NCBI GenBank assembly: GCA_902601455.1
Contig: CACKNC010000001.1
Coordinates: 167,162-231,161 of the forward strand
DNA: 64,000 nucleotides
DNA from: an uncultured Alphaproteobacteria bacterium
Lineage (GTDB): Bacteria > Pseudomonadota > Alphaproteobacteria > HIMB59 > GCA-002718135
Reading direction: 5' to 3'
A program made the position numbers and the translations under genes. Position 1 is the first letter of the stretch. Every line of letters starts with the position of its first letter. Below are positions 23,616 through 46,829 of this stretch, piece after piece. The notes under the pieces are model-generated. The model ran no database searches. It was not told the origin of the DNA and saw only the letters and a list, made by a program, of their open reading frames with translations.

Positions 23616-23617
23616 TT

Positions 23618-25060: not shown

Positions 25061-25064
25061 TTAA

Positions 25065-26222: not shown

Positions 26223-26245
26223 TTTTTATTTAATGAAAATTTAAG

Positions 26246-28422: not shown

Positions 28423-29424
28423 TTATTCTGACAAAGAAATAATTTTTTTTACTAATTCTGCATTAATACTTCTTAGACCATTATCTAATCGATTTGTATG
28501 TCTTCTTTCGCCAGGAAGTCTAACACCGTCAAGAGATTTCATTTGTTCAAAAAATTTCTCTGCATGTTCATTCCAATTTTTGCCTGCAATTAGCTCTGGA
28601 GATAAGGCCATTATAAATTCACCACCTCTAGCAGGACCTCCATCATTATTATCTGCTTCTTTAGCTTCAAAACTAAATAAATCTCCTACTAATCCAGCAG
28701 CTAATAATTCAATCATCATGGCAATAGCTGATCCCTTATAATCTCCAAAAGTAAGTAAGACACCACCATTAGCAATTTCTGATGGATCATCTGTTTTTTC
28801 ACCATCTTTATTTAAACCTGTACCATAAGGAACTTTATGACCATCTCTAGCTGCTACTTGTACTTCACCCATTGCCATGGTGGAAGTTGCCATATCATAA
28901 ACTACAGGAGTCTTATTTTTTCTTGGCCATGCAAATGAAATTGGATTAGTTCCAAACAATGGTTTTTTTGCACCTGCAGGTGCAACACTTGGCTTATAAG
29001 CTGTACAAGCAATACCGATGAGTTCATTTTCAGCTAAAGCTTCAGTCTCATGCCATAAGGCGGCAAAGTGATGTATGTTTGTAAGAGTAAGAACTCCAAC
29101 ACCATGTTTTTTTGTAACATCTACTAATGCAGGAATACCAATACCTATAGCCGTCGGTGCAAAACCATAATCACCTTCTACCCTTATTGCATTTTGAGTT
29201 AAAAAGTTATTTGTCGGTCTTGCATTACCTTTTACTTTTTTACTTTTTAAAGCTGCAATATATCCTGGAATTCTAAAAAGACCGTGCGATACACTTCCAT
29301 CTCTTTCAGCATTTGTTACTGTATGTGCTACAGCTTCTGCATTTAGTTCATCACACCCATTAAATCTTAATGTTTTTAGGGCTAAATCATATATTTCTTG
29401 AAGGGATAGATCGTTAGTTGTCAT
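28423..29424 (-). CDS. Ldh_2-family oxidoreductase (DpkA/LhpD/ComC-like)
   Basis: AERDGSVSHGLFRIPGY, HHFAALW, FGTNPISFA, DMATS, YKGSAIAMMIELL, RLPGERR. Confidence 0.88.
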   Translation of the reverse strand: MTTNDLSLQEIYDLALKTLRFNGCDELNAEAVAHTVTNAERDGSVSHGLFRIPGYIAALKSKKVKGNARPTNNFLTQNAIRVEGDYGFAPTAIGIGIPALVDVTKKHGVGVLTLTNIHHFAALWHETEALAENELIGIACTAYKPSVAPAGAKKPLFGTNPISFAWPRKNKTPVVYDMATSTMAMGEVQVAARDGHKVPYGTGLNKDGEKTDDPSEIANGGVLLTFGDYKGSAIAMMIELLAAGLVGDLFSFEAKEADNNDGGPARGGEFIMALSPELIAGKNWNEHAEKFFEQMKSLDGVRLPGERRHTNRLDNGLRSINAELVKKIISLSE

Positions 29425-29574: not shown

Positions 29575-30840
29575 ATGACTCGTTTTAATGCATGGAATGT
29601 ATTTAAAAATGGTTTCACCGGCCAAAAAAATTGGGATCGTCAATGGCGTGACCCAGTGCCAAAAAAAGAATATGACATAATAATAGTAGGAGGAGGCCTT
29701 CATGGCTTAGCCACTGCATATTACTTGGCAAAAAATCACAATAAAAAAAATATAGCAGTTTTAGAAAAAGGATGGATTGGTGGAGGAAATGCTGGAAGAA
29801 ATACAACGATAGTTCGTTCAAATTATATGATGCCTGGCAATCATGAATTTTATGAGCATTCATTAAAACTATGGGAAGATTTAAGTCATGATTTAAATTA
29901 TAATGTGATGTTCAGCCAGCGAGCACATGTCTCATTATTCCATAGTCCAAGTGCAAGAGATGGCGCAGCTCGAAGATACAATGTAATGCGTTTGCATGGA
30001 ACAGATGGAGAGTTGTGGGACTTGGATACTTTGAAAAATAATATACCTCATTTGAATTATGACAATGCACGCTTCCCTATTTTGGGGGCAGCAGTTCAAA
30101 AAAGAGCTGGTAATGCAAGACATGACTCAGCAGTATGGGGATATGCTAGAGCGGCTGATAGTTTAGGTGTAGATATTTTACAAAATTGTGAGGTCACTGG
30201 TGTTAAAAGATCACAAAATAATATTGAAAGTTTGGAAACTTCAAGAGGAACAATAAAAGCTAAGAAAGTTGGTTTTGCTGTAGCCGGATATACCTCAGTA
30301 TTATGGCAAATGGCTGGATTAGGAAACCTACCTATTGAGTCACATAAACTTCAAGCTTTTGTTACAGAGGCTATTAAACCTCTTTTAGATCATGTAGTTG
30401 TTTATGGTGTCGGAGGAGCGCACTTCTATATTTCTCAATCAGATAAAGGTAGTATGGTTTTTGGAGGAGATCTAGATTGGTACAAGTCATATGCTCAAAG
30501 AGGAAATTTACCAATCGTTCAAGACTCTGCTGAAGCTGCAATGGCTATCATGCCTTGCTTAGGTAGGATTCGTCTTTTACGTCACTGGGCTGGTGTAATG
30601 GATATGTCAATGGACGGTTCTTTTTTCATATGCAAAACCCCTCTATCAAATTTGTATCTCAACGCTGGTTGGAATTATGGAGGCTTTAAAGCAAGTCCTG
30701 CGTCTGGTTGGTATTTTGCCGATTTAATTGCAAATGAACAGCCTCATAGAAATGTTCAAAATCATAATTTAGAAAGATTTGAAAAAGGAATTAATATTGA
30801 CGAGCGTGGTGCTGGTCCAGACCCAAAGTTGCACGGTTGA
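29575..30840 (+). CDS. soxB: Heterotetrameric sarcosine oxidase/N-methylglutamate dehydrogenase beta subunit
   Basis: GGGLHGLATAYYLA, GGGNAGRNTTIVRSNY, ARHDSAVWGYARAA, GGFKASP. Confidence 0.88.
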   Translation: MTRFNAWNVFKNGFTGQKNWDRQWRDPVPKKEYDIIIVGGGLHGLATAYYLAKNHNKKNIAVLEKGWIGGGNAGRNTTIVRSNYMMPGNHEFYEHSLKLWEDLSHDLNYNVMFSQRAHVSLFHSPSARDGAARRYNVMRLHGTDGELWDLDTLKNNIPHLNYDNARFPILGAAVQKRAGNARHDSAVWGYARAADSLGVDILQNCEVTGVKRSQNNIESLETSRGTIKAKKVGFAVAGYTSVLWQMAGLGNLPIESHKLQAFVTEAIKPLLDHVVVYGVGGAHFYISQSDKGSMVFGGDLDWYKSYAQRGNLPIVQDSAEAAMAIMPCLGRIRLLRHWAGVMDMSMDGSFFICKTPLSNLYLNAGWNYGGFKASPASGWYFADLIANEQPHRNVQNHNLERFEKGINIDERGAGPDPKLHG

Positions 30841-30841
30841 T

Positions 30842-31126
30842 ATGATTAGAATTAAATGTCCATATTGTGGTGAGAGAGATCATAGTGAATTTACTTATGG
30901 AGGTGATGCCTCTGTAGAGTACCCAGCACTTGATGCATCTGTGTCAGATTGGACAAAGGCTATTTTTTTTCGCGAAAACATAAGAGGTAATCAAAAAGAA
31001 ACCTGGCATCATACAAATGGATGCAGACTGTGGTTAGAAGTCGAGAGATCTACAATCACTCATGAAATTAAAAGTGTAAAAGCTTGCCATCCACAAATTG
31101 ATAAAATAACAAAAAATAATTCATGA
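30842..31126 (+). CDS. soxD: Sarcosine oxidase/Mgd delta subunit
   Basis: MIRIKCPYCGERDHSEF, WHHTNGCRLWL Zn motif; start re-set to ATG at 30842. Confidence 0.9.
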   Translation: MIRIKCPYCGERDHSEFTYGGDASVEYPALDASVSDWTKAIFFRENIRGNQKETWHHTNGCRLWLEVERSTITHEIKSVKACHPQIDKITKNNS

Positions 31127-34080
31127 CATCGATAAGAATAAAAAATTATGGTAAAATTAATAAAGATAAAGTTATTAAATTTACTTGGGATAACAAAGAA
31201 TACTCTGGATATGAAGGTGACTCCTTAGCTTCTGCACTTTTAGCTAATGATATAAGAATAGTTGGTAGAAGTTTTAAATATCATCGTCCACGTGGTGTTA
31301 TGTCATGTGGAGTTGAAGAGTCAGGTGCTCTTGTAACTGTTGGATCTGGAAGTAAAAGAGACCCTAACGTTCGTGCAACTACGCAAGAGCTTTATTCAGG
31401 ATTAAATGCATCGGGACAAAATGCTTTCCCAAGTGTAAATTTTGATTTTGGTGGTATCAATAATTATTTAGGCCGCTTTTTTGCTGCTGGTTTTTATTAC
31501 AAAACTTTTATGGGTTTACCTCCATTTGAATGGGGTAAAGGTACTGGAATCTGGATGGTTTTTGAGAAAATTATTCGTAAAGCAGCAGGGATGGGTAAGG
31601 CCTCAAGAGAACCTGATCCAGATAGTTATGAACATGCTAATGATTTTTGTGATGTGCTTGTTGTTGGGTCTGGTCCTGCAGGTGTTGCTGCTGCACAAGA
31701 AGCAGCTAATCAAAATTTGAATGTTATTTTAATTGAACAAGATTCATTATTAGGAGGAAACAACTTAGCCGAAAAAGCATTTGACTCGAGTCTTTTGCAA
31801 AAACAGTTAGAGAGTAAGGGCATAAGAGTGATGTCTAGAACAACTGCATTTGGTGTTTATGATAACACTGTAGTTGGAGCATTAGAGAGAGTTACTGATC
31901 ATTTATCTAACCCAAATACTTTTTTACCACGTCAACGTTTTAGGACGATCAGAGCAAAATATATTATTTTAGCAAGTGGGGCTCTAGAGCGTCATATTGC
32001 TTTCAATAATAATGATATACCAGGTGTGATGACAGCAAATGCTTCAAGACAATATTTGAATAGATATGGAGTTCTAACTGGAAAAAAGATTGTTATTACA
32101 ACAAATAATGACTCTGTTTATCAAACAGCAATTGAACTTCATGAAGCTGGTTCAAAAGTGACAGTGTTAGACTCAAGAAAAAATATAAAAATCGACTTAC
32201 CTAAGGAGATAGAGATTCATTTGGAAACCTTACCTTTTAGTATTAATGGCAGTAGGAAAATTGAAAGTCTAGACGTTTGTAAGACTTCAGATAAAACTAA
32301 TAAAAATACAATTATTTGTGATCAGGTTCTGGTCTCTGGGGGTTGGTCACCAATAGTCAACCTAGTTTCTCATCGTGGAATAAAACCAGTGTGGAATGAA
32401 GAAAATCTTTGCTTTGTTCCAGGAGAAATTAAAGAAAATATTACAGTTGTTGGTTCAGCAAAAGGTATTTGGAATAATGAAGATTGTATACAATCTGGTA
32501 TTGTTGGAGCTAATGAAGCGATGAACTCACTTGGTGTTTCAAAAAAAACAATTTCTCATTTATCTGTTGGTGGTTGGTCAAATCCTATTAATGCTCTTTT
32601 TGAAGTTAAATCAAATAAATTTCCATCTAAAAGTTTTATTGATTTTCAGCATGATGTTACTGCTGAAGATGTAAGATTAGCTCACAGAGAAGGTTTCGTA
32701 TCTGTTGAACATTTAAAACGATATACAACTTTAGGTATGGCTAATGATCAAGGAAAGATGGGTAATATAATTGGCCTGTCACTAATGGCTGAACAACTGG
32801 ATAAAACTATACCAGAAGTTGGAACTACAGTTTTTCGACCACCATACACGCCTGTACCAATAGGTGCCTTGACTGGTAGAAATGTTGATAAGCATTTTAG
32901 GCCGTTACGAGTGACACCAATGCATCAATGGAATATTGATCATGGTGCCAAAATGATTGATGTGGGGCTGTACCAACGACCTTGGTACTATCCTAAAAAA
33001 AATGAAACTTTGAGTGATGCTTATATTAGAGAAGCTACAATTGTAAGAAAAACAGTTGGTATTTGTGATGTAACATCGTTAGGTAAAATTGCTATTCAGG
33101 GACCTGACGCAACTGAACTTGTAAACCGTATTTATACAAATCCCTTTGCTAAGCTTCCTATAGGTAAAGCACGTTATGGTATTATGCTACGAGATGATGG
33201 CATTGTAATGGATGATGGTACTTCATGGAGATTAGGTGAGAATGAATATTTTATGACAACATCAACCGCTGCTGCAGCTAAAGTAATGTCATGGTTAGAA
33301 GAATTATTGCAAACAAGATGGACAGATCTTAAAGTGAATGTAACAAGCGTATCTGAACAATGGGCAGGGGCAGCTATAGCAGGTCCTAAATCAAGGGATG
33401 TTTTAAATGAGTGTGTTCTTGATCCAAATAAAATTACAAATGAAAAATTACCTTTCATGGGCGTATTACAAACTAAACTTAAAGATGGTACACCTTGCAG
33501 AGTTGTTAGGATAAGCTTTTCAGGTGAGCTTGCTTATGAAATGTATATTGAGTCAGATTATGCTCATGGCATGATGGATATATTATGGGAAAACGCACAA
33601 AAGTATGAAGGCTGTTTGTATGGCTTAGAAGCTCTTGGTGCATTAAGAGTTGAGAAAGGTCATGTAACTGCAGCAGAGCTTGATGGAAGAGTAACAATTG
33701 ATGATGCAGGTTTGGGTAAAATGGCATCAACAAAAAAATCTTATATTGGAAGTGCTATGCGAAAAAGAGGAGTTATGGGTGCCGATGATAGAGATATGTT
33801 AGTTGGATTTTATCCTTTAAATGAAAAAGAAACTTTTAATGCTGGAACAATTGTTTGTGAAAAAAATAATATTCATGGTCAAGGAGTAGGGCGCATTACA
33901 TCTGTGACGCATTCTCCTGAGCTAGGACATTGGATTGGAATTGGGTTTGTTAAAGGAGGCCTTGAGAAATGGAAAGATGTTACATTAGTAGGCGCTGATC
34001 CTGTCAGAGATAAGCAAATGGAAATAAAAGTTGTTTCACCACATATGGTTGATCCAGAAGGTAAGAGAATGTATGCTTAA
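31123..34080 (+). CDS. soxA: Sarcosine oxidase/Mgd alpha subunit (Rossmann + GcvT-like folate domain)
   Basis: GDSLASALLAN, GRSFKYHRPRG, VEHLKRYTTLGMANDQGK, FRPPYTP, RISFSGELAYE, LRVEKGH. Confidence 0.92.
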   Translation: MTSIRIKNYGKINKDKVIKFTWDNKEYSGYEGDSLASALLANDIRIVGRSFKYHRPRGVMSCGVEESGALVTVGSGSKRDPNVRATTQELYSGLNASGQNAFPSVNFDFGGINNYLGRFFAAGFYYKTFMGLPPFEWGKGTGIWMVFEKIIRKAAGMGKASREPDPDSYEHANDFCDVLVVGSGPAGVAAAQEAANQNLNVILIEQDSLLGGNNLAEKAFDSSLLQKQLESKGIRVMSRTTAFGVYDNTVVGALERVTDHLSNPNTFLPRQRFRTIRAKYIILASGALERHIAFNNNDIPGVMTANASRQYLNRYGVLTGKKIVITTNNDSVYQTAIELHEAGSKVTVLDSRKNIKIDLPKEIEIHLETLPFSINGSRKIESLDVCKTSDKTNKNTIICDQVLVSGGWSPIVNLVSHRGIKPVWNEENLCFVPGEIKENITVVGSAKGIWNNEDCIQSGIVGANEAMNSLGVSKKTISHLSVGGWSNPINALFEVKSNKFPSKSFIDFQHDVTAEDVRLAHREGFVSVEHLKRYTTLGMANDQGKMGNIIGLSLMAEQLDKTIPEVGTTVFRPPYTPVPIGALTGRNVDKHFRPLRVTPMHQWNIDHGAKMIDVGLYQRPWYYPKKNETLSDAYIREATIVRKTVGICDVTSLGKIAIQGPDATELVNRIYTNPFAKLPIGKARYGIMLRDDGIVMDDGTSWRLGENEYFMTTSTAAAAKVMSWLEELLQTRWTDLKVNVTSVSEQWAGAAIAGPKSRDVLNECVLDPNKITNEKLPFMGVLQTKLKDGTPCRVVRISFSGELAYEMYIESDYAHGMMDILWENAQKYEGCLYGLEALGALRVEKGHVTAAELDGRVTIDDAGLGKMASTKKSYIGSAMRKRGVMGADDRDMLVGFYPLNEKETFNAGTIVCEKNNIHGQGVGRITSVTHSPELGHWIGIGFVKGGLEKWKDVTLVGADPVRDKQMEIKVVSPHMVDPEGKRMYA

Positions 34081-34633
34081 TAGAAATTCAGCAATTATAG
34101 AAAAGTATAATGTTGGTAAAAATCCTTTTGAAGATAATATTGAAATTATATTTTCTGAAGATCGCAATCTTATAATTCAACAAATTGCTGCATGGCCTGA
34201 TGAAATAACAAACATAGAAAAGTTTTTTTCTGATCAATTAGGAAGTCAGAAAAATATAGATTTTAATAGAGGGGAAATTTTAAAAAATAATTCACTTTGG
34301 AGAATGGAGCCTTCTAAATGGTGGTTATTAGGTGACACTATTAATTTACCAGAGAATTTAGGTACATCACTTGAGCTATCACACGCTTTCACTTCAATAT
34401 CAATTGAAGGAGATAAAACTGGCACATTACTCAATAGGCACTTACCTCTTGATTTACGATTAGATAATTTTCCTATAAATTCATCTGCAAGTTCTGCAAT
34501 TCATCATGTTAGTGTTAAACTTTTTAGAATTAGTGAAAAAGAATTCAAACTTTTTATTCCTAGAGGTTTTGCTCTATCTATCTGGGAAATATTACTTGAA
34601 ACAGCCTCTCAATTTGGATTTGAAATAAAATAG
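34073..34633 (+). CDS. soxG: Sarcosine oxidase/Mgd gamma subunit
   Basis: Position after soxA; PSKWWL, ELSHA, LPLDLR, PRGFALSIWEIL; start re-set to ATG at 34073. Confidence 0.8.
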   Translation: MLNRNSAIIEKYNVGKNPFEDNIEIIFSEDRNLIIQQIAAWPDEITNIEKFFSDQLGSQKNIDFNRGEILKNNSLWRMEPSKWWLLGDTINLPENLGTSLELSHAFTSISIEGDKTGTLLNRHLPLDLRLDNFPINSSASSAIHHVSVKLFRISEKEFKLFIPRGFALSIWEILLETASQFGFEIK

Positions 34634-36704: not shown

Positions 36705-37382
36705 TTAATCATTAGCATCGCCTCCACCAGCTCCTTTTTCTCTAGATTCTTCTGACTCAGGAACATAAGTTCTAAAAGCTAAATCAGAAATCTCATCCCA
36801 GCTAGACTGGTCTGGATTCAAACCATTTGATATGTTTGTGTTCAGAATATTATAATCAAAAGAGTCTATTTCTTTAGATATCTGGTACTCATTTGTAGAC
36901 ATGTTTAAAATAAAATTTGAACAATCATTATTTTTTATATCATCATGAATGAAAATCTTATTTTTACCTAAAACTGCATAAATTTTATTTTGATTAATGA
37001 TTTTTGAAAAAATATTTTTCTTAATAGCTCTATATAAAAGTGGGATCAAAAAAAGAGGATCAGAGCAATTTTGAAATTCTATATAAATCTCATTATTTTT
37101 TGCAGTATGAAAATTTAAAAAATCAATCAAACCTGGCCCAATCATGAGACATGATTTTTTCTCTAAATTAATTGTATTTGTTAATTTATTATTATCTAAA
37201 GCTCCATTAAAATTACTATCAATTTTTTTTTGAATACTAGAAAACAAATGAATGCCATCTAATTCGAATGCTTCTAACCAACTAATAATGTATGCTGCAT
37301 CTTCATCTGCGCCATATGGAAATCCAAGACCTGAAAATGCACGTTGAGCATTTGTAAAGACTTCATAATAGGAGTAACTCAC
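36705..37382 (-). CDS. DUF3726-like protein (GTG start)
   Basis: N-terminal SYYEV..AQRAFSGLGFPYGADEDAA and C-terminal LAFRTYVPESEESREKGAGGGDAND match the family pattern as recalled. Confidence 0.7.
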   Translation of the reverse strand: MSYSYYEVFTNAQRAFSGLGFPYGADEDAAYIISWLEAFELDGIHLFSSIQKKIDSNFNGALDNNKLTNTINLEKKSCLMIGPGLIDFLNFHTAKNNEIYIEFQNCSDPLFLIPLLYRAIKKNIFSKIINQNKIYAVLGKNKIFIHDDIKNNDCSNFILNMSTNEYQISKEIDSFDYNILNTNISNGLNPDQSSWDEISDLAFRTYVPESEESREKGAGGGDAND

Positions 37383-37385
37383 AAA

Positions 37386-39059
37386 TTAATTGTATGAATT
37401 CATCGTTGCAAAACCCCAACTATCAACGTTTTGCTCATTTAAATTTGACAAAAAAGGTGCTCCAGAAAAAAAACTGACGCGAAGCCATCTATCTGATTTT
37501 GGATCATATCTATTGGCACCAAAAAAAGATAATTTAAATCTGAGCATGTTAATTGGTATTGTTTCTTTTGATAAAATATTATCTTGAACTTCTGCAAATG
37601 GATATTGTTCAAGAGATTGAATTCTTCTTATAATGCCTCTAAATTTTGGGTTGAGAACTAAATATTCAGCAACTGACAAATTAAAATTTTCTTTTTGTAT
37701 TATGGAATGAAGTGTTTGAACCATTTTTGCAACACCAAGATTTTGCTCTAGTTCACTTCCTTCTTCATTATATCTTTCTCCCAATCTTGGCTCAAGTTTT
37801 GCGGCTGAGATATACCAAAATAAATAATCGTTATTTTTTTTTGAAAAATCAACTTCTAGAGCCCATTGATAATCTTTTTCAATAAGAGAATTTAACTCTT
37901 TTAAAGTTTGTGATTCATTTATTTTCATTTCTTCAACATCTGACATATCTTCAGCTAATTTTTCAGATTTTTCAGGATATAATTCTAACAACTGCACTCT
38001 AGCAATCTCCTGAGTATCGTAATTACATTCTTTAGTTGAAAATTTTATTATATCCATCCATGTTAAATCTTTTAATGCGTTACTTTGTAAATTTTTAATG
38101 TGATTGATATAATTATTTAAATCTTCAACTGTTTTTGTATTTTTTGTAATTTGATATTCATCAAATGTTGTCACTTCTTTCAAATAAAGGAGAGCTTTTT
38201 CAAGTAATTTTAAATAAGTAGTAATTTTTTTTGAGTCTACATTTTTATTTATTATTTTGTTTAAAGACTCTGTGTATTGGCTCATCCACTTGTTTATTAA
38301 TTTTGGGTGCTTAATTATAAAGGGGGCCATACCTAATCCTGTTGAATTACCAATACCTAAATGCTGTTTAATTTTATTCTCAAGCTTTACTGCTTTTGCA
38401 GGATTCTGTTTTTTTGCTACGTGCTCAACTAATTCAACACTAAATTCTCTAATAATATATACGGAAAGCATTTCCGCTCTAAACGGTTGATTAAAATCAG
38501 TAACCTCTTTTGTATTAGTAAAATCAGATAAGCCAAATTTTCCACTCCCATAGACAGCAGTTGTACGCAAAAGATAACCAACTTTATTTATTTCATTGAT
38601 ATCAGGTTGAAGTCCTTTAGATAAACAATCAGCTACATACTCGAATAAACGGACACTTTTATTCGCTCTACTCAAAATTAACTCTTTAGAAGAGTTACGT
38701 CCAGACTCTTGAAGAGGTACATTTTTTCTTAATCTATTAAGTTCTTTTTCATCTAACTTTCCATTGATTAAAGAGTAAGCTGTATCCCATTTTTCAGCAA
38801 TTACTCTATCACTTCTATCTTCGTTATCTAAATGTTGAGAGAAACATACAAGTGAATATATATTTTTATTAATAGTGATTTCATAAACGACTGTTCCATA
38901 ACCGTTATCATCAAGATCAAACTTTGATTTTGAAATTTTCCAGTTATCAAAAAATAATCTTCTCAGCATACTTCTAGAAAAGCTCAATCTAGATGGATAT
39001 CTCGAGCCCATCTTATCTAAGGTCATAATATCTGAGAAATTTAAGTTTTGTTGTAACAT
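37386..39059 (-). CDS. Conserved hypothetical protein (~557 aa), no recognisable domain
   Basis: Long ORF with motif-like blocks (RLSFSRSMLRR, DRSDRVIAEKWD, LSRANKSVRLF, GYLLRTTAVYGSGKFG, GIGNSTGLGMAPF, FWYISAAKLEPRLGER, FFGANRYDPKSDRWLRV); ATG at 39059 preferred over 39095. Confidence 0.8.
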   Translation of the reverse strand: MLQQNLNFSDIMTLDKMGSRYPSRLSFSRSMLRRLFFDNWKISKSKFDLDDNGYGTVVYEITINKNIYSLVCFSQHLDNEDRSDRVIAEKWDTAYSLINGKLDEKELNRLRKNVPLQESGRNSSKELILSRANKSVRLFEYVADCLSKGLQPDINEINKVGYLLRTTAVYGSGKFGLSDFTNTKEVTDFNQPFRAEMLSVYIIREFSVELVEHVAKKQNPAKAVKLENKIKQHLGIGNSTGLGMAPFIIKHPKLINKWMSQYTESLNKIINKNVDSKKITTYLKLLEKALLYLKEVTTFDEYQITKNTKTVEDLNNYINHIKNLQSNALKDLTWMDIIKFSTKECNYDTQEIARVQLLELYPEKSEKLAEDMSDVEEMKINESQTLKELNSLIEKDYQWALEVDFSKKNNDYLFWYISAAKLEPRLGERYNEEGSELEQNLGVAKMVQTLHSIIQKENFNLSVAEYLVLNPKFRGIIRRIQSLEQYPFAEVQDNILSKETIPINMLRFKLSFFGANRYDPKSDRWLRVSFFSGAPFLSNLNEQNVDSWGFATMNSYN

Positions 39060-39113
39060 ATACAAATATATATAGTGGATTATGATTTTTTTCACTATTA
39101 GAAGTTAAATAAT

Positions 39114-40088
39114 ATGAACAATAATATACTTATTGATGGCCTCGAATATGTAAATTGGACTAGAGATCTATTTGAAAAAGCTCATGCAGGAGGCTTAACT
39201 GCAATTCATACAACCCTAGTGTATTGGGAAGATACTAAAGAGTCTTTTGATAAAATAGATTATTGGGACAATCTTATTCAATCAAACAGTGATATCTTAG
39301 TTCACGTCAAAACATCCTCAGATATTTTGGAAGCTAAAAAAGCAAATAAGATTGGTATAATTTATGGTTTTCAAAATTCCGCTCCAATTGCTAATGATAT
39401 TTTTTTAGTAGAAAAGTTTTTTAATAGAGGTCTTCGCTTTATGCAGTTGACATATAATAATCAAACACCTTTGGCGGGAGGATGTTATGAAAAACATGAC
39501 TCAGGTGTATCAAGGTTTGGCGAGATGGTTATTGAAGAGATGAATCGATTAGGAATGATTGTAGATTTGAGTCATGCAGGTAAGCAAACTTGTTTGGATG
39601 CAATAAATTTTTCAAAAAAACCTGTTGCAATTTCTCATGCTAATCCAAGCTCTTTTCATCAATCGATAAGAAATATTGATGATAAGGTTTTAAAACAGTT
39701 GGCAAATAAAAATGGTTTCATAGGCTTAAGTCTGTATCCATATCATTTAAAAAATCATGGTGATTGTAAATTAGAGGATTTTTCTGAGATGATTAAGCAG
39801 TTAATTAATATGATGGGCGAAGACAGTATTGGTATAGGATCTGATCTCTGTATGAACTGGCCAGATAGTGTAGTTATGTGGATGCGAAATGGAAAATGGA
39901 CAAAAAAAATTGATTATGGAGAGTCTAAAGATAAAAATGCAAGTTGGCCAAAACCCGTTTCCTGGTATTCTAAACCAGAAGATTTATCGGGTTTGATTTC
40001 TGGAATGATTTCAAATGGTATTAATGAAAAAATTGCACACAAAATTGCTGGCAAAAATTGGCTAAATTTTATGGAAAGTCACTTTTAG
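39114..40088 (+). CDS. M19 membrane-dipeptidase-family amidohydrolase (degenerate metal site)
   Basis: IDGLEY, IIYGFQN, MQLTYNNQ, DLSHAG, ISHANP, RN, GIGSD. Confidence 0.85.
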   Translation: MNNNILIDGLEYVNWTRDLFEKAHAGGLTAIHTTLVYWEDTKESFDKIDYWDNLIQSNSDILVHVKTSSDILEAKKANKIGIIYGFQNSAPIANDIFLVEKFFNRGLRFMQLTYNNQTPLAGGCYEKHDSGVSRFGEMVIEEMNRLGMIVDLSHAGKQTCLDAINFSKKPVAISHANPSSFHQSIRNIDDKVLKQLANKNGFIGLSLYPYHLKNHGDCKLEDFSEMIKQLINMMGEDSIGIGSDLCMNWPDSVVMWMRNGKWTKKIDYGESKDKNASWPKPVSWYSKPEDLSGLISGMISNGINEKIAHKIAGKNWLNFMESHF

Positions 40089-40948
40089 TTTTTTCTTGTT
40101 ACAAATGTTGAAGCAGCAAGACTAATCAAAACGATTGCAGTTCCTAATAATTGAATGGAAGTTAATTGTTCATTAAGTATTAAAACTGCACCAAATATTC
40201 CTGTAATTGGTTCTAAATATAAAAATAAGGCAGTATTTGTTTGTCCTATTCTTGGAATTGCCAATAGTTGAAGAAACAATGCTATAGCATAAGAGCAAGA
40301 TGGTATTAACAAAATTATAAAAGCGTTAAGATTAACATCCAAATTAATTTCAAAAAATAAACTTAAAATTACTAAAAAGAAAATTGTATTAAAAAAATTA
40401 ATAAAAATATTAATTTCGATAGGCGAAATATTTTTTTTTGACATTGTTTGATTTGTAACAATCATTATTGAAGCGCCCAAAGAAGCAATTAGGGCAAAAA
40501 TTATACCCTGTACTTTAAGGCTTTCTGTTGAAGGACTTAGGGCAAGAAAAAGTCCAATAAAAGTAGTTATGAATAGTAATTTAATAATATTTTTAATTTT
40601 TTCTTTTGTTACAAAAATAGAAATAGTTAAAACTATTATTGGATAGGTGCAAAAAATAATAATTGTTAAACTTACATTTATATAAGTTACAGATATTAAT
40701 AATCCTGTTGTAAGCATTATTGAAGCAACTGTAATTAAAAGGAATAATTTAAAATTGTCTTTATAAGTTTTAAATAAATTTTTTTGATAAGGAATAAGAG
40801 GAGATACAATTAGCAAAGCTACAATATAACGTAAGAATATTGCTAGACCTACACCAGCCCCAAGATTATAAGCAGTTTTTGTTACAGGCCCAATTATTCC
40901 GAAAAATACACCTGCTGCTAAAGCAAATATAATGCCTAAAATGTTCAT
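40085..40948 (-). CDS. DMT/EamA-family transporter
   Basis: About 10 hydrophobic segments in two repeats, FCTYPIIV, YLEPITG, LNEQL. Confidence 0.85.
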   Translation of the reverse strand: MNILGIIFALAAGVFFGIIGPVTKTAYNLGAGVGLAIFLRYIVALLIVSPLIPYQKNLFKTYKDNFKLFLLITVASIMLTTGLLISVTYINVSLTIIIFCTYPIIVLTISIFVTKEKIKNIIKLLFITTFIGLFLALSPSTESLKVQGIIFALIASLGASIMIVTNQTMSKKNISPIEINIFINFFNTIFFLVILSLFFEINLDVNLNAFIILLIPSCSYAIALFLQLLAIPRIGQTNTALFLYLEPITGIFGAVLILNEQLTSIQLLGTAIVLISLAASTFVTRKN

Positions 40949-40965
40949 ATAATTTAAATTTTTTT

Positions 40966-40994
40966 TTGACTAATGCTCTTATGACAGGTATTCA
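40966..40994 (+). promoter_or_regulatory. Putative sigma70 promoter for potA-like gene
   Basis: TTGACT(40966-40971)-N17-TATTCA(40989-40994). Confidence 0.5.
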
Positions 40995-41026
40995 CACTAC
41001 AACAACAAAAAAAAACATACAAAATC

Positions 41027-42124
41027 ATGAATTCAGATACTGCAAAATCTTTCGTAAAATTTGAAAAAATAGACAAAAGTTATGATGGCGAAGTCCTAGT
41101 AGTTAAAAATTTAAATCTAGATATTGCAAAAGGTGAATTTGTAACCATGCTAGGTCCTTCAGGTTCAGGTAAAACCACAACTCTGATGATGTTAGCTGGT
41201 TTTGAAACTCCAACCAATGGTGAAATATTTCTTGATGGTATGCCAATAAGTAAAATACCTCCCTATGAAAGAGAAATTGGTATGGTATTTCAGAATTATG
41301 CGTTGTTCCCCCACATGACAGTTCAAGAGAATTTAGCCTTTCCACTTGAGGTAAGAAAAATGTCTAAAGAGGAGACAAAAACAAAAGTTCAAAAGGCTCT
41401 TGATATGGTTGAGCTTGGAGAATTTGGAACTCGTTTCCCTGCGCAACTATCTGGTGGGCAACAACAAAGAGTGGCGCTAGCTAGAGCGTTAGTATTTGAA
41501 CCAAGACTCGTCTTAATGGATGAGCCTCTAGGAGCGTTAGATAAAAATCTTAGAGAACAAATGCAATATGAAATAAAACATATTCATGACAGAATAGGAA
41601 TTACAGTTGTTTATGTAACACATGATCAAAGTGAAGCATTAACAATGTCAAATAGAATTGCAGTATTTAATGATGGTTTAGTTCAACAATTATCTACCCC
41701 AGATATCTTATATGAAAAACCTGAAAATTCTTTTGTTGCTCAATTTATTGGTGAAAATAATAGAATGACTGGAACTATTAAAAGTATGGATAATAATTAT
41801 TGTTCAGTTGATTTAGATAATGGAGCTGGTACAGTGAAAGCTCTCAAAGTGAATGTTGGCGGGACTGGTGATAAGACACAACTATCTGTTAGACCTGAAA
41901 GAGTTTCATTAGGTTCTGAAGGTAATGGAGAAAACGTATTTACTGGTAAGGTAGAAGAACTAATTTATTTAGGTGATCATATAAGGGTTAGATTAGATGT
42001 TTGTGGTAACAATGAGTTTATTGTCAAAGTTCCTAACGAAGGATCATTTAATTATAGTGAGGGAGATTCAATTAAATTAAATTGGAATCCTGACGATATA
42101 AGAGCTTTAGACCTCCCTAATTAG
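41027..42124 (+). CDS. potA: PotA-like ABC transporter ATPase with TOBE domain
   Basis: GPSGSGKTT, VFQNYALFPHM, LSGGQQQRVALARALVFEP, MDEPLGALD, VTHDQSEA. Confidence 0.88.
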   Translation: MNSDTAKSFVKFEKIDKSYDGEVLVVKNLNLDIAKGEFVTMLGPSGSGKTTTLMMLAGFETPTNGEIFLDGMPISKIPPYEREIGMVFQNYALFPHMTVQENLAFPLEVRKMSKEETKTKVQKALDMVELGEFGTRFPAQLSGGQQQRVALARALVFEPRLVLMDEPLGALDKNLREQMQYEIKHIHDRIGITVVYVTHDQSEALTMSNRIAVFNDGLVQQLSTPDILYEKPENSFVAQFIGENNRMTGTIKSMDNNYCSVDLDNGAGTVKALKVNVGGTGDKTQLSVRPERVSLGSEGNGENVFTGKVEELIYLGDHIRVRLDVCGNNEFIVKVPNEGSFNYSEGDSIKLNWNPDDIRALDLPN

Positions 42125-42244
42125 TAAAAACTCTATTTTCTGCGTCTTTTTTCCCCTTTTTTTTAGTTTTTCTACATGTTAAGAGGTGTTTATATATCGA
42201 CATATATAATCTTAAGATTAATTAATTAAAACAGGAGGAAACAT

Positions 42245-43348
42245 ATGTCAAAATTAATAAAAGTTTTCTTGATAGCATCTTTTGCTGTTGCTTCTTTTTC
42301 TGCTAAGGCAGTTACAGTTGCTTCGTGGGGCGGTGCTTACACAGAAAGTCAACAAAAAGCATATGCTGACACATATACTGATCCTAGTTCAATTCAATTT
42401 GAAAACTACAACGGTGGTTTAGGTGAAGTTAGAGCACAAGTTGAAAGTGGAAGCGTAACTTGGGATCTAGTAGATGTACTTCCAAGTGATGCAATTACTG
42501 GTTGTGATGAAGGTTTATTCGAAGATATCTCTTCTGAAATAGCAGAATTATCAACTCCAGGACCTGACGGAGAAACAATGTTAGAAGATATGGAAAATAA
42601 CGGTCTTGAGTATCACTCAGGCTGGGATTGTTGTGTTCCACAAATCTTTTGGACTTACGTAGTATTCTTTGATCCGGATGCATTCCCTGGTGATAAACCA
42701 TCTAGCATGGCTGATTTCTTTGATGTGGAAAAATTTCCAGGTAAAAGAGGAATTCATACATGGGCGACTGGTATTGTTGAAAAAGCTATGGTTGCAGACG
42801 GTGTAAAACCAACTGCAGTACCAACAGTTTTAGAAAAACAAACCGGTGCGCTTGATAGAGCTTTTGCAAAATTAGATACAATTAAGGACCACATAGTATT
42901 CTGGTCTTCAGGTTCTAAACCACTTGAATTAGTTAAGAGTGGTGAAGTTGTAATGGCTATTGCTTATAATGGTCGTGTTGGAGCTGCTAACCTAGCAGAA
43001 GGTGAAAACTTTGAATATATTTGGGAAGGTCAAGTTTTAGACCAAGAATATCTATGTTTAATGTCTGGAGCTCCTAACAGAGATGCTGCTATCGACTTTA
43101 TGATGCATGCATCAACTCCTGAAGCGCAAGCTGAACAAGCAAAGTATATTACTTATGGACCTATGAGAGCGTCTGGTATTCCTATCATTCAAAATAATGA
43201 GCCTTGGGGACCAGGTGGTGTAGAAATTATGCCTCATATGCCTAATACACCTGAACGTTTAAAAGTTTCTATTGTTAGTGATCCACAATGGTGGTCTGAT
43301 AATGGTGCAGAAATTAATGAACGTTATTCAGCTTGGATGGGTAACTAA
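42245..43348 (+). CDS. PotD-like ABC substrate-binding protein (ligand uncertain)
   Basis: Signal peptide, SWGGAYTESQ, TWDLVDV, GCDEGLFE, DFFDVEKFPGKRG, YNGR; SD AGGAGG. Confidence 0.85.
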   Translation: MSKLIKVFLIASFAVASFSAKAVTVASWGGAYTESQQKAYADTYTDPSSIQFENYNGGLGEVRAQVESGSVTWDLVDVLPSDAITGCDEGLFEDISSEIAELSTPGPDGETMLEDMENNGLEYHSGWDCCVPQIFWTYVVFFDPDAFPGDKPSSMADFFDVEKFPGKRGIHTWATGIVEKAMVADGVKPTAVPTVLEKQTGALDRAFAKLDTIKDHIVFWSSGSKPLELVKSGEVVMAIAYNGRVGAANLAEGENFEYIWEGQVLDQEYLCLMSGAPNRDAAIDFMMHASTPEAQAEQAKYITYGPMRASGIPIIQNNEPWGPGGVEIMPHMPNTPERLKVSIVSDPQWWSDNGAEINERYSAWMGN

Positions 43349-43379
43349 GGTTGATAAAGTAAATAAATTAATTTAATTT

Positions 43380-43405
43380 AAAGGCGAGATTTTTCTCGCC
43401 TTTTT
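43380..43405 (+). terminator. Hairpin + T-run after the SBP gene
   Basis: AAAGGCGAGA-TTTT-TCTCGCCTTT-TT. Confidence 0.8.
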
Positions 43406-43421
43406 AATTTGGGAGGTTTGT

Positions 43422-44687
43422 ATTTCTACTGCAGAATTATTAACAACTGACGGCGTACCACTAAAGCAAAGTCTAAAAAAAGCTGAACGTAAAAATAAGA
43501 TCAGAGCATTTCTTTTAGTATTTCCTTTGTTGTTATTTATTATAGTAACTTTTGTAATGCCTATTGGTGACATGTTATTAAGAAGTGTTGATGACTCTCA
43601 AATCAATACTGTTTTCCCAAATACTTTTAAAGAATATGAAAAATGGGATAAAGAAAAAGACGAACTACCTCCTGAAGAAGTTTTTAAATCACTATTTGAG
43701 GAATTAGCATATGGGGAGAAAGTTCAAGTTGGCAGAGCTCTTACAAGAATGAACTATTCAAAATCTGGATGGAAAAGTCTTATAAAAAAAACATCAAGAG
43801 CAATAAAAAAAGCTGTTAAAAAAAATGAATTTCCTGACTCATATAAAGATTTTTTAATTACAACTAATGAAAATTGGGCGGATCCAACTTTTTGGTACGC
43901 TATGGGTCAAATGTTAAATAATCAAACTCCTATTTATTACTACAATGCTATTGATATGACTTATGACCAAGACCAAAATGTTGTTCGTCAGGAAGAAAAT
44001 AGAAGAGTGTATGTTCAAACATGGATCAAAACATTTAAGGTAAGTGTCTACGTAACTTTCTTTTGTTTAATATTAGGTTTCCCCGTAGCTCATCTTTTAG
44101 CAAATTTACCTCTTCGTTATAGTAATTTGTTGATGATTTTTGTTTTACTACCATTTTGGACTTCATTACTGGTAAGAACAACTGCATGGATTGTCATGCT
44201 TCAACAGCAAGGTGTTATTAATGGAGTTTTAGTATGGATGGGAATCTTGAACGATGATGGAAGACTATCAATGGTTTATAATGAGACAGGAACTTTAATC
44301 GCCATGACACAAATATTACTACCTTTTATGATACTTCCTTTGTACAGTGTTATGAGAGTAATCCCAAAAAGTCATATGAGAGCAGCCCAAAACTTAGGGG
44401 CAAAACCAGCAATGGCATTTTGGAAAGTATATTTACCTCAAACTATACCTGGTATGAGTGCTGGGGGATTACTGGTTTTTGTTTTAGCAATTGGTTATTT
44501 TATTACACCCGAGTTAGTGGGTGGAAAAGATGGTAAATTAATTGGAAGTTGGATTGCTTATCATCTTAAAACAACTTTAAATTGGGGTTTATGTGCAGCT
44601 CTAGGAGCAATACTTTTAGGAGTAATGCTTGTTTTTTATTGGCTTTATAATAAAATTGTTGGCATAGATAATATTAAATTAGGATAG
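43422..44687 (+). CDS. PotB-like ABC permease with periplasmic insertion; probable ATT start
   Basis: LLPFWTSLLVRT, LLPFMILPLY, RAAQNLGA, FITPELVGG; in-frame extension (I)STAELLTTDGVPLKQSLKKAERKNK upstream of TTG 43527, with GGGAGG 5 nt before ATT 43422. Confidence 0.8.
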   Translation: MSTAELLTTDGVPLKQSLKKAERKNKIRAFLLVFPLLLFIIVTFVMPIGDMLLRSVDDSQINTVFPNTFKEYEKWDKEKDELPPEEVFKSLFEELAYGEKVQVGRALTRMNYSKSGWKSLIKKTSRAIKKAVKKNEFPDSYKDFLITTNENWADPTFWYAMGQMLNNQTPIYYYNAIDMTYDQDQNVVRQEENRRVYVQTWIKTFKVSVYVTFFCLILGFPVAHLLANLPLRYSNLLMIFVLLPFWTSLLVRTTAWIVMLQQQGVINGVLVWMGILNDDGRLSMVYNETGTLIAMTQILLPFMILPLYSVMRVIPKSHMRAAQNLGAKPAMAFWKVYLPQTIPGMSAGGLLVFVLAIGYFITPELVGGKDGKLIGSWIAYHLKTTLNWGLCAALGAILLGVMLVFYWLYNKIVGIDNIKLG

Positions 44688-44689
44688 AT

Positions 44690-45586
44690 ATGGCATTACC
44701 AAGTTACGCTTCAACTGTACAAAGAACATATTATTATACATATCTGTTTTTTTGTGGTGTAGTTTTCTTTTTCCTTGTTGCTCCTTTAATCGCAATCGTT
44801 CCAATTTCATTCAGTGTTTCACCATTTATGGTTTTTACTGATGAAATGCTTGCTTGGCCTCCAAATCCTGAAGCATGGTCTCTTAGATGGTATCAAAATA
44901 TGATTGGAAATTGTAGTGCAGATGTTGTCTCATCAACTGTACCTTGTTCAACAAAATGGATGACAGGAACTGTAAATAGTTTCTTTATTGGAATCACTGC
45001 AACATTTATTGCTACTACTCTAGGCACGTTGGCAGCATTAGGTCTCAGTAGACCTCATATGCCTTACAAAGGTCTAATAATGGCCATACTAATATCTCCA
45101 ATGATAGTTCCTCTAATTATAACAGCTGCAGGAATGTTCTTTTTTTATGCTAGAATTAACCTTGTTTACACGTTTACAGGAGTCATATTAGCTCACGTAG
45201 CATTAGCAACACCTTTTGTTGTTATTACAGTTACAGCCACATTAGTAGGATTTGATATGAATATGGTTAAAGCTTCGCAAAGTTTGGGTGCAAGACCTGT
45301 GAGAACATTTTTTAAGGTTATTATGCCTTTGATTTTACCTGGAGTAATCTCAGGCGCTTTATTTGCATTTATAACCTCATTTGACGAGGTTGTCATAGTT
45401 ATGTTTATGGCAAGTTTGGATCAACTTACTATTCCAAAGCAAATGTGGGCAGGTATTAGGCAAGAAATCAGCCCAGTTATTTTATGTATGGCAACCTGCT
45501 TGGTAATTTTATCTATTTTTTTATTAACCACAGTAGAGCTATTAAGAAGGCGCTCAGAAAAACTTCGCGGAATTAAAGCAAGATAA
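44690..45586 (+). CDS. PotC-like ABC permease
   Basis: FFLVAPL, SLRWY, SPMIVPLII, LAHVALATPFVV, ASQSLGA, FITSFDEVV. Confidence 0.88.
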   Translation: MALPSYASTVQRTYYYTYLFFCGVVFFFLVAPLIAIVPISFSVSPFMVFTDEMLAWPPNPEAWSLRWYQNMIGNCSADVVSSTVPCSTKWMTGTVNSFFIGITATFIATTLGTLAALGLSRPHMPYKGLIMAILISPMIVPLIITAAGMFFFYARINLVYTFTGVILAHVALATPFVVITVTATLVGFDMNMVKASQSLGARPVRTFFKVIMPLILPGVISGALFAFITSFDEVVIVMFMASLDQLTIPKQMWAGIRQEISPVILCMATCLVILSIFLLTTVELLRRRSEKLRGIKAR

Positions 45587-45590
45587 AAAA

Positions 45591-46829
45591 ATGAATGCAA
45601 AACCACATATTGCAGTGGTTGGAGCAGGTATTGTAGGGATTTGCTCAGCTTATTTTTTAAATAAATCTGGTTTTCAAGTAACATTAATAGATAAAAATGA
45701 TCCTGGTACCATTACAAGTTATGGACATGCAAGTACATTTGCTGATTATGCATGTGTACCTGTTAATTCACCAGATTTAATTAAAGAAATTCCATCAATG
45801 CTATTTAGGAGTGATAGTCCTTTAACTGTTGATTTTTTTTACGCAATTAAAAATCTTGATTGGGCATTTAAATTTATAAAAAATTGCACAACAAAACAGG
45901 TTAATTATATTTCTGGCGCATTAGGCAATTTACTTAATAGTGCAAGTGTAAGTTACGATGAAATTTTCTCAGAAGTAGACGTATCAAAATATATAAAAAA
46001 CGAAGAAGCGTTATACTTATATCAAAATAAATATGAATTTTTAAAAGCAAAAACTTCAAATAAAATAAGAGAGAAAAATGGTGTAAAAATCAAAATACTT
46101 TCAAAAAATGAAATATTAGATCTTGAGCCTAATCTTGCTTCTATATTCTATAATGGTCAACTTTTTATTGGTTCACGTCATACAAATAATCCTGCAGCTA
46201 TAAGTAAAAAAATATTTGAAACATTTGTAAATAATGGAGGAAGATTTTTAAAAAATAATATTGCAGATATAAAATCTAAAGAAAATTTGGTTACTTTGAT
46301 CTATGGTAACAATGAACATAATTTTGATAAAGTTATTATTTGTGCCGGCTCATGGTCAAATATTTTGACAAAAAAAATAGGTGATGATTTTCCTTTAGAT
46401 ACTGAAAGAGGTTATCATGTGATGTTTAATAACTATGATTTAATTAATCGACCAGTAGGTTGGTCACAAAGTGGTTTCTATCTTACGCAACTTGAAGAAG
46501 GTTTAAGAGCTGCAGGAACAGTAGAAATTGCTGGTTTAAATAAACCTGAGAATAAAAAAAGAACCAAAATGATTGAGAGTGAGGCTAGAAAATTATTACC
46601 TCAACTTAAAGAAGTAAAAAGTACTTGGTTAGGTTTTAGACCTACATTGCCTGACTCATTACCAGTTATAGGTCCGTCAAAAAAATATAAAAATATTATT
46701 TATGGTTTTGGCCATCACCATATTGGTTGGACACTTGGTGCAGTTACAGGAAAAATAATTAATTCAATATGTAATGATAGAGTTCCAAATATTAATATAG
46801 AGCCTTTCAGTCCAAGTCGCTTCAATTAA
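45591..46829 (+). CDS. FAD-dependent D-amino acid dehydrogenase (DadA-like)
   Basis: VVGAGIVG, TSYGHA, PLDTERGYH, LRAAGTVE, WLGFRPTLPDSLPVIG, FGHHHIGWTLG. Confidence 0.85.
   Translation: MNAKPHIAVVGAGIVGICSAYFLNKSGFQVTLIDKNDPGTITSYGHASTFADYACVPVNSPDLIKEIPSMLFRSDSPLTVDFFYAIKNLDWAFKFIKNCTTKQVNYISGALGNLLNSASVSYDEIFSEVDVSKYIKNEEALYLYQNKYEFLKAKTSNKIREKNGVKIKILSKNEILDLEPNLASIFYNGQLFIGSRHTNNPAAISKKIFETFVNNGGRFLKNNIADIKSKENLVTLIYGNNEHNFDKVIICAGSWSNILTKKIGDDFPLDTERGYHVMFNNYDLINRPVGWSQSGFYLTQLEEGLRAAGTVEIAGLNKPENKKRTKMIESEARKLLPQLKEVKSTWLGFRPTLPDSLPVIGPSKKYKNIIYGFGHHHIGWTLGAVTGKIINSICNDRVPNINIEPFSPSRFN

Follow-up and report, generated by a model that had tools for sequence, protein, structure and literature searches.

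Three neighbouring genes in the genome of an uncultured alphaproteobacterium raise the question of which compound they serve to degrade. They lie in a stretch of 64,000 nucleotides (nt; the window in what follows) of contig CACKNC010000001.1, assembly GCA_902601455.1, which has a GC content of about 31% and belongs to a streamlined genome of 1.4 Mb; close homologues of the window's proteins are named Pelagibacteraceae or Alphaproteobacteria bacterium. A preliminary description, made from the sequence alone, reported two co-oriented genes 3 bp apart, one for a DUF3726 protein and one for a protein of ~557 amino acids (aa) belonging to no family, and across 54 bp a divergent gene for an M19 peptidase-like protein. 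Reading of the DNA bears out this layout, Pfam and NCBIfam searches bear out the account of the small and large proteins, and the quoted motifs (TTAVYGSGKFG, GIGNSTGLGMAPF, SRANKSVRLF, IDGLEY and GFQN) all occur in the open reading frame (ORF) translations. The genes are probably homA, homB and homC, which serve the catabolism of homarine and occur here in a pared-down SAR11 version.

The homABCDER genes and a transporter gene, homT, were reported in March 2026 to encode catabolism of homarine (N-methylpicolinate) in Cobetia sp. OBi1 and Ruegeria pomeroyi DSS-3 (Ferrer-Gonzalez et al., Nat Microbiol, PMC13236597); statements made here from this and other publications refer to the portions of their text that were accessible. 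In that report homA is ~700 nt and homB ~1,700 nt long, HomC is a predicted "peptidase", HomD is the aldehyde dehydrogenase (ALDH) SPO3191, and HomA and HomB are modelled as a heterodimer likened to TgnA/TgnB. Mutants of R. pomeroyi in homB, homC, homD or homR did not grow on homarine, and deletion of homD in Cobetia also abolished growth on it (PMC13236597). The operon is stated to occur in SAR11, in 120 Pelagibacter-clade genomes of which none has homE; homA adjoins homB in 97.7% of genomes, and homB transcripts tracking homarine in situ were attributed to Pelagibacter (PMC13236597). A literature search for SPO3188-3191 returned the hom paper and a small-RNA paper only. The expectation of a betaine catabolic module, with homarine among the candidate substrates listed, is therefore supported by the published operon, and the pathway can no longer be called undescribed. 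The large ORF likewise belongs to a family characterised at the genetic level, as homB knockouts lose growth on homarine.

The window contains a HomB-family protein, an adjacent homA and a nearby M19 homC; neither a homD within 10 kb nor a homR beside the genes was found. The homB stop codon (TAA) is followed by TTT and then by the GTG start of homA. Similar arrangements are found in other lineages. On a plasmid of Phaeobacter inhibens DSM 17395 the order is LysR-ALDH-M19-hypothetical protein (567 aa)-DUF3726, which read backwards is the published order of SPO3188-3192 (homA, B, C, D, R). A Mesorhizobium plasmid locus reads LysR-ALDH-M19-fused 814-aa protein-Ldh family-ABC transporter, and on a Pseudomonas plasmid RidA-BCCT-M19-ALDH is divergent from LysR, after which come a hypothetical protein and DUF3726. 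The window HomB shares 39-40% identity over at least 94% of its length with proteins of these LysR-ALDH-M19-X-DUF3726 clusters, and a profile hidden Markov model (HMM) built from a HomB-type alignment matches it. The preliminary description had suggested that the three genes recur together with an ALDH and transporters of the betaine type, and the loci examined verify this.

In Vreelandella, a member of the Halomonadaceae as is Cobetia, the layout is LysR / ALDH-M19-BCCT-HomB-DUF3726-RidA. This corresponds to the seven-gene Cobetia operon as published, which has a regulator gene, five genes for catabolism and, separating homC from homB, a transporter gene of the betaine type (PMC13236597). Because the two gene sets agree, we infer that homE is the RidA-like gene. 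In Vibrio and Psychrobacter RidA adjoins the ALDH instead, so that the two RidA placements agree with the two published positions of homE. By HMM, RidA-like genes were present in 40 of 80 M19-centred, mostly gammaproteobacterial loci, as compared to none of 128 roseobacter-type loci. This distribution mirrors the published one, in which homE occurs in 93% of gammaproteobacterial carriers and in few alphaproteobacterial ones (PMC13236597).

Co-occurrence was counted in three sets of loci, which were picked by HomB or HomC similarity and are mutually related, so that they are not independent samples; a HomD-type ALDH was counted at 45% identity or more and an Ldh_2 gene at 40% or more. The 80 M19-centred loci contained HomB in 66, HomC in 80, HomA in 64, a HomD-type ALDH in 65 and Ldh_2 in 5 cases, and 6 of the 14 without HomB are incomplete loci. 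The corresponding numbers were 49, 45, 49, 42 and 14 for 50 Phaeobacter-type HomB loci, and 78, 77, 78, 72 and 59 for 78 Ruegeria-type HomB loci. Among 41 SAR11 relatives, including the window genome and many incomplete assemblies (56-99%), 22 have HomA, 20 have HomB and 19 have HomC. HomB never occurs without HomA in this set, the genes of the discrepant genomes are situated at the ends of contigs, and the 19 relatives without HomA have neither HomB nor HomC at the thresholds used. In one SAR11 relative the HomB match (G037:C7:25527-27158) contains a single in-frame TAA, which could reflect a pseudogene or a sequencing error. Four loci (L190, L201, L205 and L219) have ALDH and M19 genes (HomD-HomC) as a pair but lack a HomB within 6 kb, and in one of them the pair lies between gyrB and proS; such a pair may be separate from homAB or work alone.

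A tree of 69 HomB sequences (IQ-TREE quick mode, rooted on fused forms from Burkholderiales) places the window HomB in a 26-row alphaproteobacterial clade together with Ruegeria, Phaeobacter, SAR116, Mesorhizobium and another SAR11 genus. A larger, 54-row clade (support 99) includes the window, Ruegeria and the Halomonadaceae, and the Halomonadaceae and Vibrio clades are sisters within it. Because the lineages of the two tested organisms lie on either side of the window HomB, the tree favours the same function for it.

In the case of HomB, the protein (557 or 569 aa) matched nothing in Pfam, NCBIfam or the PDB sequences. The ORF is listed as 37386-39095 on the minus strand, which gives 569 aa if an upstream GTG start is used; the start was placed at the internal ATG since nearly all close homologues have the 557-aa form. 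The family is large: all 8000 HomB candidates scored in a 90%-clustered database match at E<=0.001, and in a library clustered at 50% identity 1241 representatives do so at E<=1e-3, 360 of them at E<=1e-30. An AlphaFold model from 58 homologues reached a mean predicted local distance difference test (pLDDT) value of 94.9 and a predicted template modelling (TM) score of 0.94, and a single-sequence prediction gave a pLDDT of 35. The three genes are real genes, as shown by the 1241 representatives and the confident HomB model. Their frames are open and 68-89% conserved among same-genus genomes, and all family-invariant residues are retained in the window HomB and HomA.

Foldseek comparison of the HomB model to the PDB gave no match at E<=0.001, with TM scores of at most 0.13. 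The best hit in a wide VIA search had a Z of 6.2 (3w6s_A, a GNAT protein; root-mean-square deviation 4.0, 145 residues aligned), as compared to a stated background in which the best Z is 7-8. Many GNAT chains scored near Z 5, and the remaining matches were weak, GNAT-like or helical. The ESM Atlas returned unnamed "hypothetical" clusters of 578-584 aa with scores of 0.90-0.91 and low recognition, one of them auto-named PcfJ-like. On the model, HomB has no clear solved relative. The earlier suggestion of a possibly novel fold therefore stands as far as the missing match goes, which is no proof of a new fold.

HomA matches DUF3726 (PF12525) at E 6.7e-9 over residues 4-56 only. An alignment of 28 HomA sequences shows a conserved N-terminus and a C-terminal tail of the form LVExSExSRxxGAGAGxxDND, which in the window reads SR..GAGGGDAND. 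Over its first ~135 residues HomA can be aligned with the N-terminal third of Ldh_2 (PF02615, 333 profile positions), with an hhalign probability of 84% at E 7e-6. Two HomAs from Halomonadaceae exceed the Pfam Ldh_2 cut-off, and the window HomA has no Pfam Ldh_2 match. HomA does not retain the SHG motif that all of the aligned Ldh_2 proteins share. Judged by its sequence, HomA appears to be a truncated Ldh_2-like N-terminal domain with a conserved tail of its own, and is unlikely to act alone as a dehydrogenase. A literature search for DUF3726 found nothing.

Complex prediction was performed with the window's HomA and HomB, each with its alignment, and gave a score of 0.86 as compared to 0.00 for the best control. 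The 0.86 mark is reached by 116 of 157 solved complexes and by 2 of 215 mismatched pairs, counts that are rough where alignments are self-made. Separate runs agreed in at least 95% of contacts, with a partner pLDDT of at least 85. The predicted interface brings HomB residues 172-179 (YGSGKFG), 241 (GIGNSTGLG) and 416-425 against HomA residues 1-7, 22-28 and the tail at 203-220. These contacts join conserved HomB loops, to which the preliminary description had drawn attention, with the conserved N-terminus and tail of HomA. Since conserved segments of both proteins meet in the predicted interface, the model suggests an active site shared between them. It also supports the notion that HomA binds HomB, as the small and large subunits of a HomAB enzyme.

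Gene fusions were also observed. Among 14 scanned HomB long forms of ~800 aa, 4 carry PF12525 above the cut-off at the C-terminus and 2 more do so weakly, and the 814-aa protein of Mesorhizobium is a HomB-HomA fusion. A C-terminal DUF3726 in these long forms indicates that homB and homA are fused into a single gene elsewhere. A distant Burkholderiales clade (L138:7878-10742 of Pigmentiphaga, L139 and L140) has fused HomB-HomA-like proteins of ~950 aa. HomB-like proteins of 850-950 aa were considered as the hypothetical protein ("hp") of dgc operons and rejected, because the Pigmentiphaga neighbours are LacI, a TctC-type binding protein and an unrelated ALDH, and a dgc-type locus of Ralstonia has a V4R protein instead.

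HomC matches Peptidase_M19 (PF01244) with 242.7 bits against a cut-off of 26, over residues 18-321. The binuclear zinc site of renal dipeptidase is formed by an HxD motif, a bridging Glu and two His residues. In an alignment of HomC with dipeptidase 1, Gln takes the Glu position of GVEGG (GFQN), and the motifs DLSH, SHAN and GSD are retained. The N-terminus reads IDGLEY and has no HxD; the first 17 residues are left unaligned by the Pfam model, and by pattern IDGLEY would take the place of the canonical IDGHND. Of the two substitutions described earlier, the Glu-to-Gln change is thus confirmed by alignment and the other stands by pattern. Two of five canonical metal-ligand positions are substituted on this count. 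With HxD and the bridging Glu replaced, a binuclear zinc dipeptidase site is unlikely, and HomC probably acts on a small amide intermediate and not on dipeptides.

The substitutions are conserved in all four hom-type M19 proteins aligned, and the same IDGL and GFQN are present in a dgc-type M19 from Ralstonia and in PDB entry 2I5G. The latter, an "amidohydrolase" of 325 aa, is the top PDB sequence match of HomC (E 1.9e-62), and we take it to be PA5396; a literature search for 2I5G found nothing. The dgc-type operon on the Ralstonia solanacearum megaplasmid (L229, 6678-15643) comprises glyA, M19, a 178-aa "4-vinyl reductase" (V4R), dgcA-like and dgcB-like genes and etf. The window HomC is 41-47% identical to M19s of hom clusters and 36% identical to the dgc-type M19. 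Because the Ralstonia protein shares IDGL and GFQN with the hom type, loss of half the metal site seems to mark a wider M19 clade tied to the catabolism of N-methyl compounds. The likeness to a PA5396-type protein noted in the preliminary description is sound at this subfamily level. Its word "degenerate" is misleading, given that the substitutions are conserved in both hom- and dgc-type proteins and that homC is required in R. pomeroyi (PMC13236597).

These assignments can be placed in a possible pathway. According to published isotope tracing, the homarine ring opens with the N-methyl group kept, and the intermediates C7H9NO5, C6H9NO4 and C6H9NO3 are followed by N-methylglutamate and glutamate (PMC13236597). 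HomA and HomB, as the one two-subunit enzyme predicted here and in that paper, would make the first ring-opening attack and retain the N-methyl group. Going by the published formulas, cleavage could be reductive and oxygen-dependent and yield an N-formyl-N-methyl unsaturated glutamate semialdehyde, which an ALDH would oxidise to C7H9NO5. HomC, with half of a two-metal site, would then hydrolyse an amide, most simply the N-formyl group, to give C6H9NO4, or C6H9NO3 if it acts on the aldehyde. The aldehyde step is taken by HomD in other bacteria and would be taken here by another ALDH, perhaps the syntenic ALDH1. A reductase would form N-methylglutamate, which could be the task of a linked Ldh_2 enzyme, and the neighbouring sox-like enzyme would demethylate N-methylglutamate to glutamate.

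The last of these steps draws attention to the soxBDAG-like operon beside the hom genes. The published conversion of N-methylglutamate to glutamate is carried out by a sox-like N-methylglutamate dehydrogenase (mgd), and mgd is said there to be mis-annotated as sox (PMC13236597). The window genome has two paralogous soxBDAG-like operons, whose subunits are 41-51% identical. In the window operon and the second operon, respectively, the NCBIfam models scored 593 and 712 bits for soxB (cut-off 529.45), 102 and 124 for soxD (cut-off 116.5), 1161 and 1347 for soxA (cut-off 1164), and 65 and 70 for soxG (cut-off 143.95). The window operon is therefore the lower-scoring and more divergent of the two. 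SoxA of the window type (at least 70% identity) was found in 18 of 25 genomes of the genus, namely all 17 with HomA and one with SoxA at contig ends; the other 7, which lack hom, have the second paralogue only. This covariation within the genus is explicable by physical linkage alone. A correlation between sox paralogue and hom was sought in a second SAR11 genus and none was seen. The lower sox scores, the covariation with hom and the published warning make the window operon a candidate for N-methylglutamate dehydrogenase (mgdABCD) mis-annotated as sarcosine oxidase.

Several observations weigh against reading the trio as a working homarine system. The match to the published homA, homB and homC is an indirect one, made by gene size, gene order, neighbours and the tree, and the accessible text of the paper describes no SAR11 culture shown to use homarine (PMC13236597). 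The window HomB is just 37-42% identical to HomBs of roseobacters and of other SAR11, and the stem of its clade is long (1.05). Pfam and NCBIfam detected neither an oxygenase nor a flavin or Rieske domain in HomA or HomB, so a different ring-opening chemistry is possible. HomD is essential in both model organisms (PMC13236597), and no HomD-type ALDH was found in the window assembly, which is 86% complete, the best candidates being 32-35% identical. HMMs for LysR, BCCT and RidA found no match beside hom in the SAR11 loci examined, and the BCCT model found none anywhere in the window genome.

The lack of HomD appears to extend across the genus, as none of the 20-kb loci from three further genomes of the genus contained a HomD-type ALDH. 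Among themselves HomD proteins share 53-63% identity, including one from the other SAR11 genus, and the ALDHs of the Phaeobacter, Mesorhizobium and Pseudomonas clusters share 60-63% identity. ALDH1 is 34-35% identical to HomD-type ALDHs; it could replace HomD without being its orthologue. In the other SAR11 genus (G025 and G026), ALDH, homC, homB and homA are co-oriented in that order, and the ALDH is 53-56% identical to those of the same three clusters. The LysR model matched neither the window nor five other SAR11 loci, and the accessible text of the paper does not list homR for SAR11.

Could the module have taken on a different substrate in this genus? A HomABC family module might act on another heterocyclic or amino-acid betaine with an N-methyl group, such as trigonelline, or on a proline or pipecolate betaine derivative, and pass a different N-methyl amino acid to the sox-like demethylase. 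The length of the HomB branch and its low identity to other HomBs would fit such a shift, as would the absence of a HomD orthologue, LysR, BCCT and RidA from the loci searched and the divergent homC. The other genes of the island also differ (EamA, Pot-type ABC, DadA-like, ALDH1, proline-racemase-like, M20 and M24), and the other SAR11 genus retains the canonical ALDH-homC-homB-homA order. However, the lineages of the two experimentally tested organisms lie on either side of the HomB clade, and every family-invariant residue of HomB and HomA is kept. A HomD-type ALDH is likewise missing from the examined flank of several further loci in the alphaproteobacterial clade. In addition, Pelagibacter homB transcripts track homarine in situ and SAR11 is among the operon carriers (PMC13236597). 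A shift of substrate is accordingly rather unlikely, and homarine is retained as the preferred substrate.

The M19-like gene could instead be a PA5396-type accessory of dimethylglycine catabolism (pepD-hp-dgcAB), with the module serving the breakdown of glycine betaine and dimethylglycine. The IDGL and GFQN shared with 2I5G agree with this, the sox-like operon adjoins the module, and the published accounts describe PA5396 as a 978-bp "putative dipeptidase" gene in the dgc operon and Vibrio and Pseudomonas dgc clusters as beginning with a dipeptidase and a hypothetical gene. Yet in the one Ralstonia dgc-type locus read, M19 is followed by the "4-vinyl reductase", dgcA, dgcB and etf, with neither HomB nor DUF3726, and HomC is closer to hom-cluster M19s than to the dgc type. 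No dgcA- or dgcB-like gene was present among the window ORFs scanned with Pfam and NCBIfam, a scan that included no search aimed at dgcA or dgcB. A role in dimethylglycine breakdown is thus very improbable. We find it hardly credible that the M19-like protein has decayed into an inactive peptidase and that the three genes are a functionless relic. The two substituted metal-ligand positions would be expected of decay, but they are shared by all four hom-type proteins and the dgc-type protein aligned. The frames are open and conserved within the genus, contigs from RNA libraries cover parts of the genes, and knockout of homC in R. pomeroyi abolishes growth on homarine (PMC13236597).

Positions of the hom genes and of the neighbouring and related features are collected in Table 1.

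Table 1. The hom genes, their surroundings and related features (window numbering unless another locus is named).
Feature	Position	Strand	Remarks
homA	36705..37382	-	225 aa, 678 nt, GTG start, DUF3726 protein
homB	37386..39059	-	557 aa from ATG at 39059; no Pfam/NCBIfam family
homB-homC intergenic region	39060..39113		54 bp, AT-rich, divergent (sequence read)
homC	39114..40088	+	324 aa, ATG start, M19-like amidohydrolase
soxBDAG-like operon	29575..34633	+	beside the hom genes; homA neighbour in same-genus genomes
DoeA-like M24 hydrolase	35530-36702		ends 2 bp from homA, convergent; TIGR02993, 472 bits, below 613-bit cut-off
Genus-conserved context block	40085..48259		synteny in three same-genus loci (L224, L226, L228)
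EamA transporter	within 40085..48259	-	genus-conserved neighbour of hom
PotA-like ABC transporter with SBP_bac_8 binding protein and two permeases	within 40085..48259	+	
DadA-like FAD oxidoreductase	within 40085..48259	+	genus-conserved
ALDH1, aldehyde dehydrogenase	46826-48259	-	genus-conserved, 6.7 kb from homC
ehuABCD-type ectoine/hydroxyectoine ABC importer region	20020-28416		four ehu genes, all above NCBIfam equivalog cut-offs
Second sox-like operon	G000:C1:84229-89396		next to fhs
RidA/L-PSP genes at either end of gammaproteobacterial hom clusters (examples)	L158:11212-11613, L165:3967-4392, L178:3932-4366		

The promoters of both homB and homC are presumed to lie within the short gap between them. 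The order conserved in the genus is a pyridoxal phosphate (PLP) enzyme, M20, M24, a proline-racemase-like gene, soxBDAG-like genes, homA/homB, divergent homC, EamA, a Pot-type ABC importer, a DadA-like gene and ALDH1. The DoeA-like M24 hydrolase was considered as a part of the hom module and rejected; it is convergent and is absent from 3 of the 4 same-genus loci compared. The ehu importer is followed by a PLP enzyme, an M20 amidohydrolase (DoeB2-like, below the cut-off), an M24 protein and a trans-3-hydroxyproline-dehydratase-like protein, and the gene set of the ehu region differs from the classical doeABCD/eutABC set. Full-length Ldh_2 genes often lie near hom, for example at L003:11375-12388, L190:3169-4173, L222:2967-3983 and, in the window, 28423-29424. 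The window gene product shares 47% identity with that of a gammaproteobacterial metagenome-assembled genome in which two EamA genes and an ALDH-M19 pair adjoin the Ldh_2 gene, and it could be the reductase that forms N-methylglutamate.

In four metatranscriptome runs on seawater, which belong to three studies, RNA contigs of up to 763 nt cover parts of M24, homA, homB and homC at 93% identity or more. Some parts of the stretch are uncovered by such contigs, which is uninformative as to expression. The contigs are weakly consistent with transcription, and DNA carry-over is a possible source.

The module is real, conserved, ecologically relevant and, genetically, already described. Homarine, an algal betaine, is among the most abundant small nitrogen compounds from phytoplankton, and SAR11 is the most abundant marine bacterial group. 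Which SAR11 lineages carry hom genes bears on the flow of carbon and nitrogen in the ocean. No new system is added here, as the genetic assignment has been published. What is new concerns the proteins, with HomB having no clear solved fold, HomA being Ldh_2-like and truncated, and binding of the two being predicted and matched by fused forms. New as well is a genus in which no HomD-type ALDH, regulator, BCCT or RidA was found with hom, and in which hom lies beside a divergent sox-like operon, the candidate mgd. It is possible, and on balance doubtful, that HomAB is a new N-methylpyridinium carboxylate ring opener with a fold that has no solved relative and a composite site formed by the Gly/Arg-rich loops of HomB and the N-terminus and GAGxG tail of HomA. 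Such an enzyme might work without flavin or Rieske centres, and this SAR11 genus would then hold a HomD-less island wired to a dedicated sox-like N-methylglutamate dehydrogenase.

Comparison to known systems sets these proteins apart to varying degrees. HomA resembles the N-terminal third of Ldh_2 proteins, a family of malate/L-lactate, ureidoglycolate, sulfolactate and imino-acid dehydrogenases, but covers only about a third of the fold, lacks the SHG motif and has its own C-terminal tail. HomC is a family-level homologue of the renal/membrane dipeptidase M19 (PDB 1ITQ) and keeps DLSH, SH and GxD, whereas HxD and the bridging Glu are replaced. It is closer in kind to the PA5396-type M19 of dgc operons and 2I5G, with which it shares the loss of HxD, the change of Glu to Gln and the link to catabolism of N-methyl compounds; the two differ in sequence (36% identity to the dgc type), and the Ralstonia dgc operon pairs its M19 with V4R and dgcAB in place of HomAB. 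TgnA/TgnB of trigonelline degradation is the proposed analogue of HomAB, as a two-protein unit that opens the ring of an N-methylpyridinium carboxylate (PMC13236597). The analogy is one of function only. It comes with no demonstrated likeness in sequence or domains, and neither a flavin nor an oxygenase domain could be detected in HomA or HomB. As compared to the published hom operon, the window lacks a HomD-type ALDH, LysR, BCCT and a RidA-like gene, its homC is divergent from homBA rather than co-oriented, and its genes directly adjoin a sox-like operon and an ABC importer of the Pot type. In both the window and the operon of Cobetia and R. pomeroyi, as far as the latter is described in the accessible text, a DUF3726 gene of ~700 nt directly follows a family-less gene of ~1,700 nt, an M19 gene lies alongside, a HomA-HomB heterodimer is predicted, and a sox-like (mgd) enzyme is linked to the pathway.

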